From positions 31,790-95,789 of the forward strand of contig CAWEXT010000003.1 of assembly GCA_963813105.1 (NCBI GenBank): a stretch of 64,000 nt of DNA, in the 5' to 3' direction. The notes below the pieces were generated by a model, which did not search any database, was not told the DNA's origin, and was given only the letters and a program-made list of their open reading frames with translations. Below, piece after piece: positions 54,598 to 64,000 of the stretch. Made by a program: the position numbers and the translations under genes. This DNA comes from an uncultured Simkaniaceae bacterium (GTDB taxonomy: Bacteria > Chlamydiota > Chlamydiia > Chlamydiales > Rhabdochlamydiaceae). The stretch's first letter is position 1. Each line of letters opens with the position of its first letter.

Positions 54598-57500
54598 ATG
54601 ATAGAAATCGGACATATAGTTTCTAGATTTGCGAAAGGTTGTTTATCTTTCTTATTGTCCCTCGCTCTTGTTTTTTCTAAACCTCTTTCTGCAAGCGACA
54701 AAATACCAACAACTGGCCCAATCCTTTCCTTCATCAGCATCACCGGACTCGATGATGAAATCATCAAAATCGGAAAAGGAGGAGATTGCGGCAAACCTCC
54801 GAAACAAGGTCCTCCAGGCCCTCCGGGTCCTCCAGGTCCGCCTGGTCCCACAGGTCCCCCAGGAGCTGGAACAACAGGGCCAACAGGGCCAACTGGAACT
54901 CCTGGTCCAACAGGCCCACCTGGATCAGGGTCAACAGGACCAACTGGTCCAACCGGAGCAACAGGCGATCCTGGAACAACTGGGCCGACAGGACCAACTG
55001 GGTCGGGACAACAGGACCAACCGGTCCAACCGGAGCGACTGGCGATCCCGGACCAACAGGTCCGACAGGACCAACTGGGTCGGGACCAACAGGACCAACA
55101 GGTCCAACCGGAGCGACGGGCGATACCGGAACAACTGGTCCAACAGGACCAACCGGGACCAACAGGACCAACCGGTCCAACCGGAGCGACGGGCGATCCC
55201 GGAACAACTGGCCCAACAGGACCAACTGGGTCGACCAACAGGTCCAACCGGTCTAACCGGACCGACGGGCGACCCGGAACAACAGGACCGACAGGACCAA
55301 CTGGGTCGGGACAACAGGACCAACTGGTCCAACTGGAGCAACTGGGCCAACAGGACCCTGATCAGGGTCAACAGGACCAACAGGTCCAACGGGAGCAACG
55401 GGCGATCCGGACAACAGGTCCAACAGGGGCAACTGGATCTACGGGTGAACTGGCCGACAGGACCAACAGGCCCAACAGGGGCAACTGGATCTACGGGTGA
55501 TTCTGGTCCGACAGGACCAACAGGACTAAGGGGCAACTGGTCAACAGGTGATTCGGCCACAGGACCAACAGGCGCAACAGGTGCAACTGGATCAACAGGT
55601 GACTAGGTCCAACCGGTTCTACAGGACCGACAGGTCCAACAGGAATAACCGGACCAACAGGTCCGACAGGTATAACAGGTCCAACAGGAGCAACTGGGGA
55701 AACTGGATTAACCGGAGCAACCGGCCAACAGGACCGACCGGTGCAACGGGCCTACAGGAGCAACTGGGGAACTGGATTAACTGGAGCAACTGGGCCAACT
55801 GGCCCGACGGGTGAACAGGAGCGACAGGTGCAACTGGGCCAACTGGTATAACCGGAGAACAGGACCAACAGGTGCGACAGGTGTAGGCACTGGCCAACTG
55901 GGGCAACTGGATCGACTGGATAACTGGGCCAACTGGCCCGACCGGAAACAGGATCGACGGTGCAACTGGGCCAACTGGATCAACCGGAGCAACAGGACCA
56001 ACGGGTCCAACAGGTCAACGGGTCCAACAGGAGCAACTGGGGCAACTGGACCAACTGGAGCAACTGGGCCAACTGGACCAACGGGTTCTACAGGACCACC
56101 GGTGCAACTGGGCAACTGGATCAACAGGTGCAACTGGCCAACTGGACCAACGGACAACAGGGCCAACTGGACCAACTGGGGCAACTGGATTAACCGGAGC
56201 AACTGGACAACTGGTCCGACTGGTACAACGGGTCCAACAGGAGCAACTGGGAAACAGGATCAACAGGTGCAACTGGTCCAACTGGACCAACAGGACCTAC
56301 AGGACCAACTGGTCCAACTGGGCAACCGGAACAACTGGCACAGGACCAACAGGTCCAACAGGCCTACAGGACCAACAGGTGCAACTGGCCAACTGGACTA
56401 CAGGAGCAACTGGCCCAACAGGACCGACCGGATCTACAGGACCAACGGGCCAACAGGTGAAACCGGACTACAGGACCAACAGGACCAACAGGTCCAACAG
56501 GATCTACAGGACAGGCCCAACAGGACCGACTGGACCAACTGGAGCAACAGGACCAACTGGTCCGACAGGTCCAACAGGACCAACTGGACCAACAGGACCG
56601 ACTGGACCAACTGGACCAACTGGACCAACAGGACCAACAGGACCAACTGGTCCAACAGGACCAACTGGTCAACGGGACCGACTGGACCAACTGGGCCAAC
56701 TGGACCAACAGGTCCAACAGGTCAACAGGACCAACTGGCCCAACAGGACCAACTGGAGCAACTGGCAACAGGCCCGACTGGTCCAACAGGTCTACAGGAC
56801 CAACTGGACCAACAGGACCAACTGGATCAACTGGACCAACAGGACCAACTGGTCCAACAGGTCCAACAGGACCAACTGGTGCAACGGACCAACTGGATCA
56901 ACTGGACAACAGGACCAACAGGTCCAACAGGATCAACAGGACCAACAGGACCAACAGGTCCAACAGGATCAACGGCCCAACAGGACCAACAGGACCAACC
57001 GGACCAACAGGACCAACAGGTCCAACAGGATCGACTGGGCCTACAGGACCAACAGGTCCAACAGGACCGACAGGAGTAACTGGACCGACAGGACCAACAG
57101 GTCCAACTGGGCAACAGGACCAACCGGAGCAACAGGTCCAACAGGAGCAACAGGACCAACTGGATCGACTGGACCGACGGGGACGTTGTCCTCGCTTCGT
57201 TATGTAGTTTTTAATGACACGCAGGGTTCATCTGTTACTGTAAACTCTGGCGCGACTGTTGTCCAAGCTGCCCGGGCACTAACTGGAACTCTTGTAACGA
57301 ATACCTCTGAGATCACTTTTGTTGCTACTACTGGTCTCGTAACTATCGATGATACTGGTGTATATTTGATTATGTATGGCGTAGCCAACTCAACAGCTAC
57401 TGCCTCATTTGCATTAGCACAAAATGGAACTCAATTAGGCACGCATTACACGATAGGAGCGACCGCTCAAAAGCTGTTGTGCAGCATATCTACAATTGTA

Positions 57501-57626
57501 AGCGTTACAAGTGGAGATACATTTAGTCTTAAGAATAATAGTGCAGTTACGGCAACTTTAAATGCAACTGGAGGTGCCGCTGTTCCACCTATTTATGCCT
57601 TTATGACATTTGTCAAAATTAACTGA
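54598..57626 (+). pseudogene. Collagen-like triple-helix-repeat protein (BclA-like): signal peptide, ~790 residues of G-X-Y dominated by GPT, and a ~148-aa C-terminal globular domain; many frameshifts as assembled
   Basis: Leader [35 protein letters not shown] begins at 54808 ([19 protein letters not shown]...). [16 protein letters not shown]-type peptides reappear in all three + frames down to ~57183. The final frame ends ...[20 protein letters not shown]...[26 protein letters not shown]...[10 protein letters not shown]. Confidence 0.85.
54808..57183 (+). repeat. 9-bp-periodic coding tandem repeat (GGN-CCN-ACN)n with a ~75-80-bp higher-order unit in its 5' part
   Basis: GGACCAACA/GGTCCAACT units run throughout. 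The block GGAGC(R)AC(N)GGCGAT(N)CCGGA recurs at about 54955, 55031, 55110, 55183, 55259 and 55391. All six frames stay open because the composition is stop-poor. Confidence 0.9.
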
Positions 57627-57723
57627 TTTCCGAAATCCGACGAAATAAATGGTCGATTGTTGAAGAATGGTTTTACGAATGAATTTAGGATTTCATTAGA
57701 TGTATTTAAATTTAAGGCAAAAA

Positions 57724-61946: not shown

Positions 61947-62002
61947 ATTTGCTCATCAAACCTGTAATTTCCTATTCTTAAGAAAACAATAAAGAGCGAA
62001 AG

Positions 62003-63556
62003 ATGAAAAAAATGTTCATAGCATTGTTCTTTATCGCTTTCTCTACTCCTTTGCTGGGTGTTCCTATTACGTGGGCTACACCTTCTACCTTATCCACCTT
62101 AGGGGTCAATTCACTCGATCCCCACGTGGCTTTCGATTCAAGCGGAAATATCGTTGCTGTTTGGAATGAAAATGGTGTTATTAAAGCGAGCACCCAGCCT
62201 GTCAGCGGAAATTGGGGTACGGCTGTTGCTATTTCAAGTTCTGGAGCATCCGCTCCTAGATTGTTTGTCGATCCCAGTGGAAATGCTACGGCAATATGGA
62301 TCGATAGTGGAGGTGTAAAAGCCGCAACGCTTCCCTCTGGAGGAAGCTGGAGTGCTGCGACGAGTGTTTCTTTAGCAGGAGCTTCTACTCCTCAGCTTGC
62401 TGGGGATCATAGCGGAAATGTCGTTGCCATTTGGGAGAGCAGTGGCGGTGGTATTCAATCAGCGACAAAATCTTTTGGTGGGAGTGGCCTTTGCCATTAT
62501 TAGTCGATACACTTTCGACAACAGGTGATAACCCTCAAGTAGCTATAGGCGCCAATGGAACAGTTGTTGCCATCTGGCATGATGTTACTTCCATCGGTAC
62601 CATTTATGCTGCGACGAAAATCCTGAATCTTGTTTGGCGGCGAAACAAGCGATTTCGAATTCCACACAAGATAGTGCCTATCCGAAGATAGCGGTCGATT
62701 CGAATGGAAATGCCTTAGCTCTTTGGTATCGATATGCACTAACAAATTCCGTCTATAGGAACGTTGTACAATCTGCATCACTTCCAGTGAGTGGAAGCTG
62801 GACCGCCCCTGTCGATATTTCAACTGTAGGTTTTCACAATCCAGCTAATTTAATCTTACGAGTTGCTTTCGATGGCAATGGAAATGCTCTTGGAGCTTGG
62901 ACTTCTTCTCAAGATGAGAGTTATTACCAGGTTAATACTGCGGTATTACCTGCTAATGGAGTCTGGACAGAACCGAGTACGCTCTTTTATGATCTATACA
63001 CTACCGCGCAAGATATAGCGGTTGATGCATTAGGGGATGCATTTATCGCTTATATGCAGACTGCCTCCTTGGTGATTGTATCATCCTATACAAATTTAGC
63101 GAGTAGTATGTCGATTTCTGGACTGATAAGGCTCTTGTGTCCAATGGAGCAAATAATGCGTTTCCTCGTATTGCTGTAGTGAACAACGGAAATACGATTT
63201 ATGCAGCAACAACTTGGATACGATACAATGGTTCTAATACCGTTATAAGGGTAGCAACAGGAACAGGCTCGGTTTTTTTACCACCGTCGAATCTTATGGT
63301 GACACAGAGCACGAATAATTTTGGAGTTTTAACGGAGTATTACAATACCCTTACTTGGACAGCAAGTTCTGATCCCAATCTTACTGGATATATCATCTTT
63401 CGAAATGGGGTAGAGATTGGAAATTTAACTTCGAGCTATTTGCAATTTACTGACCATAATCGACAGATAAGCTCATCGGTTACGCTAACCTATGGAGTAG
63501 CGGCAGTTGGAGCTGGAAGTAATCAAAGCGCAACGGTTTCTGTAAGCTTCCCTTAA
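62003..63556 (+). pseudogene. Secreted repeat protein, paralogue C; about 3 frameshifts
   Basis: Leader MKKMFIALFFIAFSTPLLG. Same DxxGN..A.W repeats across ORFs 62003-62503, 62431-62691, 62634-63179 and 63137-63556. FN3-like tail YNTLTWTASSDPNLTGYIIFRNGVEI...YGVAAVG. Confidence 0.75.
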
Positions 63557-64000
63557 TTCGCTTTTTGCGCGAGGGCTTCATTAGCTTTTGCAGCGAGTTT
63601 TTCGACAGCAAAGGCGAGATTCTTTTCCACGCATTCTTTCACATGCGCAGGCAAGTCTTTTATCGAAAGGAGTTGTTGGCAAGCTGTCATAGACTCTTCA
63701 TACCGTCATCCAATAAGCGCAAATGGAATACTCTTAAAGTATCCCGTAATTATAAATCCACGATTCGACAAAAAGAGGATCGGAGGAGAGAGGGACGCTC
63801 AGGTCGAAATTGGCGAAGAGATAGCCTAGAAGATAGTTTTCCTTCATCCGGTAGTAATGGCTGAGTCGATAGAGAGGCTCTGTGCGTGAAGGACGAAATT
63901 GAAAGGCTTTGGTGTAGCTGTTGCTAATAGTTGATTCGGGCATATTCAGGGTTTCTTGCAAAACAGCGATTTGGTACATCGACCAGAAAACCTCTTGATC
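63553..64000 (-). pseudogene. 3' part of a gene running off the window: helical (TPR-like) C-terminal region of the kind found on some family-2 glycosyltransferases; contains an in-frame TAA (63734-63736) and a frameshift
   Basis: The minus-strand peptide is ...RPSRTEPLYRLSHYYRMKENYLLGYLFANFDLSVPLSSDPLFVESWIYNYGIL-stop-EYSICAYWM.. It is then followed, in a shifted frame, by YEESMTACQQLLSIKDLPAHVKECVEKNLAFAVEKL. The family assignment is from memory of similar tails and has low certainty. Confidence 0.35.

Follow-up and report, generated by a model that had tools for sequence, protein, structure and literature searches.

A candidate glycosylated collagen-like fibre module with lectin-like propellers, conserved in uncultured Chlamydiota

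Five consecutive genes and a convergent sixth lie at the 3' end of a 64,000-nucleotide stretch of DNA from an uncultured Simkaniaceae bacterium (GenBank assembly GCA_963813105.1, contig CAWEXT010000003.1, positions 31,790 to 95,789 of the forward strand), which we call the window. They encode a collagen-like protein with a predicted BclA-type head, a GT92 glycosyltransferase, three tandem propeller proteins with N-terminal leaders and, on the opposite strand, a second glycosyltransferase. This locus is one copy of a module that is conserved in uncultured, environmental Chlamydiota. What does such a module make? We are moderately confident that it specifies a glycosylated collagen-like surface fibre with lectin-like propellers. 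To our knowledge, the chlamydial surface is pictured as a disulfide-linked outer membrane complex with Pmp adhesins and type III needles, a picture that leaves virtually no place for long collagen-like glycoprotein fibres or for protein glycosylation.

The locus and its conservation

A preliminary description made from the letters of the window had pointed out this cluster, and every element that it named was found at the position it gave in the 64-kb window. The features of the locus are as follows, with the efflux operon upstream of it listed last.

54598-57626, + strand: collagen-like gene, frame-repaired product of about 1,015 amino acids
54598-54693, + strand: signal peptide of the collagen-like protein, 32 residues, predicted cut before SD (translation and inspection)
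54694-54807, + strand: short N-terminal region ending in a conserved Cys and KPPKQ motif, start of the collagen stalk (translation)
54808-57182, + strand: collagen-like stalk, about 260 G-X-Y triplets, mostly GPT, GAT and GST (Tandem Repeats Finder and frame-aware parse)
57183-57626, + strand: C-terminal globular head, predicted BclA_C/C1q/TNF-like jelly roll (Pfam, profile and Foldseek)
57724-58638, + strand: GT92-family glycosyltransferase with N-terminal hydrophobic leader (PF01697)
58730-60311, + strand: paralogue 1, putative exported beta-propeller with C-terminal beta-sandwich (open reading frame, leader and AlphaFold2 model)
60331-61894, + strand: paralogue 2, propeller family (tblastn with paralogue 1, 52% and 40% identity in two frames)
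62003-63556, + strand: paralogue 3, propeller family (tblastn pieces in frames 2, 1, 3 and 2, covering query residues 1-516)
63553-64000, - strand: 3' part (TPR-like C-terminal domain) of a GT2-TPR glycosyltransferase gene, one frameshift
49017-51340: OEP (TolC-like) and MFP genes of an RND efflux operon
51343-54377: AcrB gene of the same operon

The five + strand genes are separated by gaps of 97, 91, 19 and 108 bp, the first counted from the corrected GT92 start, and each product opens with an N-terminal hydrophobic leader by inspection; in both respects the locus is as it had been described. The convergent gene, whose stop lies at 63553-63555, does overlap by 4 bp with paralogue 3, which ends at 63556. 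As for the open reading frames (ORFs), the genes are all present, but only the body of paralogue 1 is intact in this assembly. Leaders, here and throughout, were called by inspection or with a crude hydrophobicity heuristic and not with a signal-peptide predictor. A scan for promoters and terminators gave nothing exceeding shuffle expectation.

Is this arrangement anything more than a chance adjacency? One genome per species (GTDB representatives) was scanned with GT92 motifs and the best 80 loci were kept; the scan was seeded with the GT92 alignment, the 42-sequence propeller alignment being too diverse for that use. Co-localisation of homologues had been set beforehand as the test on which the proposed link between the genes could fail. 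Collagen repeats were found within the 10-kb flanks at 16 of the 19 loci with a GT92 of at least 47% identity, compared with a single, marginal case among the 61 others, which are distant chlamydial GT92s and gut bacteria (Fisher p 6e-13). All three loci of the 19 that have no repeats are on short contigs. At about 12 of these 16 loci, GT92 directly follows the collagen gene on the same strand. The propeller family showed the same preference (11/19 versus 0/61, Fisher p 7e-9). Because the module co-occurs across species-level Chlamydiota metagenome-assembled genomes (MAGs), the link between its genes is stronger than adjacency alone. Within the best 80, the loci carrying both GT92 and collagen repeats all come from MAGs, and no cultured genus occurs among them.

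Two relatives, numbered like the other loci of the scan, illustrate the module best. L001, on a 29-kb contig, has the same order of MFP, AcrB, collagen gene, GT92 and three paralogues, with GT92 and the paralogues intact, and five convergent or adjacent GT2-type genes follow the paralogues. In L002, on a 2-Mb chlamydial contig, two propeller genes, GT92 and the collagen/BclA_C gene adjoin one another; its paralogue is about 40% identical to the window's, and GT2-TPR, GH130, GT25, GT10 and methyltransferase genes surround them. Within this analysis, the chlamydial assignment of the window is supported by the source names of its homologues and by its synteny with L001 and L002.

The window and L001 represent near-conspecific strains, and aligning them part by part gave the following identities.

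Efflux flank (OEP, MFP, AcrB): DNA 96%, protein 96-100%
Collagen head: DNA 71%, protein 44%
GT92: DNA 84%, protein 84-88%
Paralogue 1: DNA 80%, protein 70%
Paralogue 2: DNA 84%, protein 80-82%
Paralogue 3: DNA 72%
Convergent tail: DNA 81%, protein 88.6%

The stretch 54378-64000 of the window, set against L001 4904-15216, is a divergence hotspot, with 71-84% DNA identity inside it and 96% in the flank. A hotspot of this kind would be expected if the structures are exposed, antigenic or in contact with the host, or if alleles have been replaced by recombination.

Other loci vary in gene number and repeat content. Intact collagen-like genes stand in tandem in L020 (three, 6491-14804) and L021 (two, 5928-9914), and their heads differ from each other; in these two loci the fibre gene itself has undergone paralogous expansion, rather than the propeller genes. 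L007 (8183-20718) and L008 (8-20705) contain 567 and 1,131 G-X-Y triplets over 12-20 kb, and L007 has three GT92 copies. The MAGs of L007 and L008 are labelled 'uncultured Verrucomicrobiae', and several MFD taxon labels look inconsistent with chlamydial gene content.

The collagen-like protein and its head

The leader of the collagen-like protein has, by inspection, an n-h-c layout and an A-x-A-like site, and equivalent leaders occur on the orthologues of L001, L002, L005, L018, L020 and L021. The motif that opens the stalk (Cys/KPPKQGPPG) recurs in L001, L002, L005, L015, L016, L017 and L021. Inspection revealed no exosporium-leader-like motif conserved among the collagen-like orthologues; homologues of ExsFA were not searched for.

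In the stalk, Tandem Repeats Finder reports a 9-nt unit, GGACCAACA (Gly-Pro-Thr), in 262.6 copies from 54868 to 57175 with 6% indels, and a 78-nt higher-order repeat lies inside the stalk DNA at 54895-55347. Since the DNA is a near-perfect 9-nt repeat, all three frames of the collagen gene are open over long stretches. Readings in any single frame alternate between blocks of GPTGPTG, DQQDQQ and TNRTNR; therefore, the true reading frame switches repeatedly. The gene was read with a frame-aware dynamic-programming parse that rewards Gly, Pro, Thr, Ala and Ser codons and penalises frame changes. The frame-repaired collagenous part has 798 residues (33% Gly, 31% Thr and 20% Pro) and 251 G-X-Y triplets, 134 of them GPT. 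On the scale of 0.28-0.29 nm per residue used for collagen stalks (PMC12357932), its predicted length is 223-231 nm.

The head comprises 147 non-repetitive residues (57183-57623) and ends in the family tail AFMTFVKIN. Single-sequence searches with it, word-indexed and exhaustive, returned just 2, 8 and 17 relatives because the head evolves too fast; hence profile and fold comparison were used. The window's head aligns over nearly the full length of Pfam BclA_C at 24.4 bits (E 2.8e-5), under the curated cut-off of 38. Six of the 15 orthologous heads match the same family, the best with an E-value of 4.4e-10. A profile built from the 15 heads matches PDB entry 9H38, the C-terminal domain of F-BclA from B. 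thuringiensis, with an E-value of 2.7e-8, and B. anthracis BclA (3TYJ, 1WCK, 2R6Q and 2Z5W) with E-values of 0.003-0.01. F-BclA is the collagen-like tip fibrillum of the F-ENA appendages of B. thuringiensis, and 9H38 shows its C1q-like C-terminal domain (PMC12357932).

The AlphaFold2 model of the window's head has a mean predicted local distance difference test score (pLDDT) of 80.8. Foldseek placed the C-terminal domain of F-BclA first among its matches (E 1.7e-9, template modelling (TM) score 0.70-0.75) and BclA second (E 2e-7, TM 0.65-0.73), followed by EDA/TNF and gC1q domains. Among the viral models of BFVD, the closest were collagen-like/BclA_C proteins of Bodo saltans virus and Klosneuvirus (E 1e-9 to 2e-9, TM 0.71-0.73, 24-26% identity), and many phage tail-fibre tips came after them. 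The analogy with giant-virus fibres that had been drawn for this protein holds at the level of the fold. The orthologue profile, Pfam on the orthologues and the AlphaFold model all agree on the BclA-like C-terminal domain proposed earlier, and as judged by profile and model the head is a BclA/C1q-type jelly roll.

GT92 and the glycosylation island

The gene directly downstream had been named a GT92-like glycosyltransferase, and its product scores 81.1 bits against PF01697, well above the cut-off of 23, over profile positions 2-181 of 249. Orthologues in L001, L002 and L004 match PF01697 likewise, and the intact 303-aa orthologue of L001 is 84-88% identical to the window's protein. The leader reads MISTIRVCCFVIFTFSPLLNIL. 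The orthogroup has a distinctive conserved C-terminus, YEIEDQER..RFVP...SGWGW. At the site of the DxD motif, its members read [DE]-[IV]-[DNEGH]-E-[FY], with D, N, E, G or H in the third position and an invariant Glu next.

The putative glycosyltransferase tail seen at the 3' end turned out to be a TPR tail from a family of GT2-TPR glycosyltransferases, a representative of which matches Glycos_transf_2 and TPR in Pfam. It is 41% identical to residues 242-361 of a 386-aa GT2+TPR protein of L002 (E 3e-28) and 88.6% identical to its L001 homologue. The window holds the C-terminal part only; the GT2 domain, present in L001 and L002, lies past position 64000. ORF clustering of 23 related loci shows the frequent neighbours of the module to be GT2-TPR (16 loci), GT25 (8), Methyltransf_24 (8), FkbM methyltransferases (6 and 5) and an epimerase (3). 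The GT25, methyltransferase and outer-membrane barrel genes of such loci were not found elsewhere in the 64-kb window; by analogy with L001, the glycosyltransferase island probably continues past 64000.

Where would these enzymes act? The hydrophobicity test gave the following proportions of leader-bearing products in the related loci.

GT92: 23/27
GT2-TPR: 24/31
GT25: 13/15
Methyltransf_24: 9/12
FkbM methyltransferases: 10/13
Propeller proteins: 23/30
Other ORFs of the same loci (control): 34/87

Two of four epimerase copies also have a leader. Many of the leaders on the island enzymes have classic n-h-c regions and A-x-A-like sites. This crude measure suggests that fibre, enzymes and propellers may meet outside the cytoplasm, an unusual place in bacteria for GT-A enzymes that depend on nucleotide sugars. 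Leader-bearing island enzymes occur in L001, L002 and L005-L025, for example at L005 14406-15575, L018 13988-14914, L017 17246-18007 and L025 6559-7620.

Could the island, GT92 included, instead build lipooligosaccharide or another envelope glycan, with the collagen-like protein an unglycosylated adhesin that shares a variable island? The GT25 enzymes ('LPS biosynthesis', for lipopolysaccharide), GT2 enzymes, FkbM and class-24 methyltransferases and an epimerase are typical of LPS or polysaccharide loci, the DxD motif of GT92 is atypical, and the acceptor is not indicated by the sequences. However, the GT92 orthogroup follows the collagen gene and not other glycosyltransferases (the 16 of 19 versus 1 of 61 given above), cytoplasmic LPS-assembly enzymes are not expected to bear signal-peptide-like leaders, and a stalk with 31% Thr is like the O-glycosylated stalks of BclA. 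We consider an envelope glycan as the product of the island unlikely.

The reading of the locus as a glycosylated fibre module has a more specific form, which we put forward tentatively and regard as doubtful. Sec-exported GT92, GT2-TPR, GT25, methyltransferases and epimerase would decorate a >200-nm collagen-like fibre by extracytoplasmic O-glycosylation in the periplasm or inclusion lumen, and fibre and propellers would form a strain-variable coat for uptake by protists. Nucleotide sugars are not normally available outside the bacterial cytoplasm; the donors would presumably be host-derived nucleotide sugars.

Two further ORFs of the window, both on the minus strand, were recorded. A 359-aa ORF at 29142-30221, about 25 kb from the fibre locus, matches Glyco_transf_90 (PF05686, E 4.7e-27), whose best-known members are eukaryotic (CAP10/POGLUT-type), and is a further eukaryote-like glycosyltransferase of the window. 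A 710-aa ORF at 3305-5437 is a fusion of sodium:dicarboxylate symporter (SDF) and periplasmic solute-binding (SBP_bac_3) domains.

The propeller paralogues

Paralogue 1 is intact over 516 aa from position 58761, and its leader at 58730 is one frameshift away. The leaders of paralogues 2 and 3 read MNRILAILFTVLFVP and MKKMFIALFFIAFSTPLLG, and paralogue 2 is 80-82% identical to its L001 counterpart. Mutual identity among the three is 40-55%. We collected 229 homologues of about 520 aa, often several per contig; those with a named source are all labelled chlamydial (Rhabdochlamydiaceae, Parachlamydiales, Parachlamydiaceae, Chlamydiales and Chlamydiota). The paralogues match no family in Pfam, NCBIfam or PHROG, and NCBIfam has no match for any of the four window products examined.

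The AlphaFold2 model of paralogue 1 (pLDDT 92.5) supports the propeller and FN3-like architecture that had been suggested for these proteins, predicting a beta-propeller at residues ~15-425 and then a seven-strand beta-sandwich at ~430-516. Foldseek against the PDB put the Photorhabdus propeller lectins PHL and PLL on top (E 1e-11, TM 0.68-0.72 per target). These fucose/O-methyl-sugar lectins are the closest fold to the propeller paralogues.

Binding protein or enzyme? In the 42-sequence alignment the invariant residues are almost all Trp, spaced about 45 aa apart, and the propeller has one invariant Asp (D35); no Arg is invariant or near-invariant, and paralogue 1 has just 6 Arg. A sialidase or glycoside-hydrolase reading of the propeller was set aside, as no catalytic-type residues (an Arg triad or a nucleophile pair) are conserved. 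As far as the alignment goes, the lack of conserved Arg and the Trp-dominated invariance speak against an enzyme of sialidase type and favour a role in binding or structure.

A surface fibre or a secreted effector?

How might the products work together? Collagen chains would be Sec-exported and would trimerise through the BclA/C1q-type head, which may nucleate a triple helix ~220-230 nm long, its stalk opened by the Cys-containing N-terminal motif. GT92 and its neighbours could O-glycosylate the Thr residues of the stalk, and the sugars that they add may be methylated. The result would be hair-like fibres or adhesins outside the chlamydial cell, comparable to the Bacillus BclA nap and giant-virus fibrils, for whose attachment the N-terminal Cys/KPPKQ motif and the barrel protein of the relatives are candidate elements. 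The propellers may be carbohydrate-binding partners, either of host glycans or of the fibre's own glycans. The whole would probably help the cells to attach to eukaryotic hosts or to be taken up by them, or else would coat and protect the extracellular stage.

The barrel protein is encoded by a gene that accompanies the module in 10 of the 23 related loci. It has ~365 aa (e.g., L017 10889-11983 and L018 4186-7170) and a weak match to the inverse-autotransporter beta-barrel IAT_beta (PF11924, E 2.5e-6). On the strength of this match, it is a candidate outer-membrane anchor for the fibre.

Several observations tell against a glycosylated fibre module. The window's own head falls short of the Pfam BclA_C cut-off. 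The canonical DxD of GT92 is not conserved, the window having L-E-V-D-E-F, so its predicted activity and donor are uncertain. The propeller family is missing from 8 of the 19 GT92 loci and is not an obligate partner. The propeller fold is generic, and sialidases, glycoside hydrolases and lyases also match it (E 1e-9 to 1e-7). If the leaders are true signal peptides, they would put GT-A enzymes outside the cytoplasm, complicating glycosylation before export. Moreover, each of the four nanopore-type relatives inspected closely (L001, L002, L004 and L015) has frameshifts in the collagen gene, and the case for sequencing error in it rests on other assemblies.

The same proteins might be soluble. 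Collagen/C1q-like and propeller proteins could be secreted effectors, acting through C1q, TNF or collagen mimicry and host-glycan binding, and not an attached fibre. Every product has an export leader, neither an anchoring motif nor a partner was identified in the window, eukaryotic TNF/C1q ligands have the same head fold, and the locus diverges fast between strains, as effectors often do. Against this, the characterised stalk-plus-head proteins are all attached to particles (BclA, F-BclA, phage tail fibres and giant-virus fibrils), the conserved N-terminal Cys/KPPKQ motif could serve attachment or cross-linking, and the IAT_beta-like barrel gene keeps company with the module in the 10 of 23 loci mentioned; none of the three is decisive. 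We regard soluble effectors as quite unlikely.

Sequencing error or gene decay?

If the locus encodes a fibre, why are its genes broken in this assembly? The frame-aware parse of the collagen gene corrected ~37 single bases, 28 of them missing and 9 extra, and left one in-frame stop; ~35 of the corrections are within the stalk and 2 are in the last 20 bp, past the repeats. GT92 requires 2-3 corrections, paralogue 1 one, paralogue 2 two and paralogue 3 three. In the typical event, one base is lost from a short run, turning GGNCCAAC into GGNCAAC.

These frameshifts are most likely long-read sequencing and polishing errors and not gene decay, because the G-X-Y and GPT pattern is kept, the losses are of single bases in runs, AcrB is split alike and intact orthologues exist elsewhere. 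The G-X-Y pattern and GPT codon usage are unbroken across all frame switches, and amino acid identity to the intact L001 GT92 and paralogues is maintained at 70-88% across them. Intact collagen-like ORFs are found in L005 (662 aa), L018 (560), L020 (668, 702 and 667) and L021 (648 and 667). The nearest relatives of the window are 'MFD' nanopore metagenome MAGs and ERZ2503xxxx assemblies, with the same kind of damage.

Two observations on the pattern of errors stand apart. AcrB (51343-54377) is in at least four frame pieces, its L001 orthologue being an intact 1,010-aa ORF; one-base indel errors are window-wide in this assembly and not particular to the fibre locus. The great majority of the missing bases (55003-57112) belong to the Pro codon in GGN-CCA-AC contexts, where CC is read as C. 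This bias suggests a systematic, context-dependent base-calling or polishing error, not random noise, and a methylation-motif effect behind the losses is conceivable.

Alternatively, the cluster could be decaying in this genome, with real frameshifts and no fibre made. The number of corrections and the remaining stop would fit decay, as would the 1-3 corrections in each other gene and the broken state of the near-identical L004. Indel density, furthermore, is ten times that of the flank (~15 per kb in the collagen gene versus ~1.4 per kb, or 7 gap openings in 4.9 kb), and in L001, otherwise clean, several frameshifts occur in the collagen gene only. We tentatively ascribe this tenfold excess to poor polishing inside the long repeat. 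Decay, though, would add substitutions and larger deletions, yet periodicity, codons and identity to L001 persist as described, and most events remove one base from a short homopolymer run, in an assembly whose relatives are nanopore-derived. A pseudogene cluster is very unlikely.

A prophage tail-fibre gene or giant-virus-derived insertion is barely plausible: the head model does match phage tail-fibre tips and giant-virus collagen-like proteins (E 1e-9 to 1e-6) and a full-length orthologue matches PHROG tail-fibre families, but those PHROG matches fall in the collagen repeats while the head alone and the propeller match no PHROG family, the Pfam matches listed for neighbour genes include no phage family (the flanks were not scanned against PHROGs), the annotated neighbour clusters are glycosylation enzymes and an outer-membrane barrel, and the module sits between efflux operon and glycosyltransferase island with its position relative to GT92 kept across many chlamydial lineages. 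The prophage reading was rejected, since its PHROG tail-fibre matches are due to collagen repeats only.

Significance

We found no description of a collagen-like module in Chlamydiota among the titles and abstracts of the open-access literature, and the association of the fibre gene with GT92, chlamydia-specific propellers and leader-bearing sugar-modifying enzymes appears new. Broken or truncated genes in long-read MAGs and contig-end collapse in short-read MAGs are probably why the module went unnoticed.

The module is found in at least 16 species-level lineages, which suggests that the environmental chlamydiae, the majority of the phylum, have an overlooked structure for host contact that is probably important. 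A glycosylated fibre module of this kind would add chlamydiae to Firmicutes spores and giant viruses as a third case of 'glycosylated collagen hair' on particles that must be taken up by or stick to eukaryotic cells. Its strong divergence between near-conspecific strains suggests that it could determine host range. Moreover, the leader-bearing enzymes raise a testable question: where, and with which donors, do chlamydiae glycosylate proteins?

Comparison with known systems

How does the module compare with its nearest counterparts? The GT92 family is known mainly from eukaryotes, and in CAZy it comprises animal and plant beta-1,4-galactosyltransferases. The chlamydial enzyme resembles these in its clear PF01697 match and in an N-terminal hydrophobic segment like that of type II Golgi enzymes, but it belongs to a bacterial orthogroup tied to a collagen-like gene and has a variable DxD position. 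The propeller proteins likewise have their best fold match in Photorhabdus PLL, PLL2-5 and PHL, with which they share Trp-rich repeated blades, whereas identity is 13-17%, no Pfam family is common to both and the resemblance is in fold only. At ~520 aa the chlamydial proteins are the larger ones; they have an additional C-terminal beta-sandwich and, probably, more blades or longer ones.

Pasteuria Pcl and Legionella Lcl are collagen-like surface adhesins of host-associated bacteria, as the chlamydial fibre would be, though the repeats of Lcl are of GPP type and its C-terminal domain differs. Pasteuria fibres are reported to show diversifying selection (PMC6238073, PMC10987987), a parallel to the chlamydial divergence hotspot.

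The collagen-like fibrils of giant viruses (Mimiviridae/Klosneuvirinae, Bodo saltans virus and Tupanvirus) have the same collagen repeats and the same BclA_C/C1q-like head by fold prediction. They form glycosylated hairs on a particle that protists take up, and if the picture drawn here is true, a hairy coat on the infectious particle of chlamydiae would be their bacterial counterpart. There is no sign of recent common ancestry beyond the fold, however; the chlamydial context is bacterial (an efflux operon and a glycosyltransferase island), and viral fibril glycosylation uses different enzyme sets.

Closest of all in architecture are Bacillus BclA, F-BclA and L-BclA and C. difficile BclA1-3. 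Judging from the genes alone, the chlamydial protein has the same Thr-rich (GPT)n stalk and putatively trimerising C-terminal BclA_C/C1q-like head; the stalk varies in length, and a glycosyltransferase gene stands beside the fibre gene in both. The stalks of BclA and F-BclA are O-glycosylated or predicted to be so, with a glycosyltransferase gene nearby in the F-BclA locus of B. thuringiensis (PMC12357932), and SgtA is reported to glycosylate C. difficile BclA3 (PMC7157674). In contrast, the chlamydial host is non-sporulating and of Gram-negative type, the protein starts with a predicted Sec signal peptide and a Cys/KPPKQ motif instead of an exosporium leader that docks on ExsFA/BxpB, and its locus includes GT92, leader-bearing enzymes and the accompanying propeller family. 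Because an exosporium-targeting N-terminus, a defining feature of BclA, is missing, we do not class the protein as a BclA orthologue; we class it as a BclA-like collagen-like protein in a new context.

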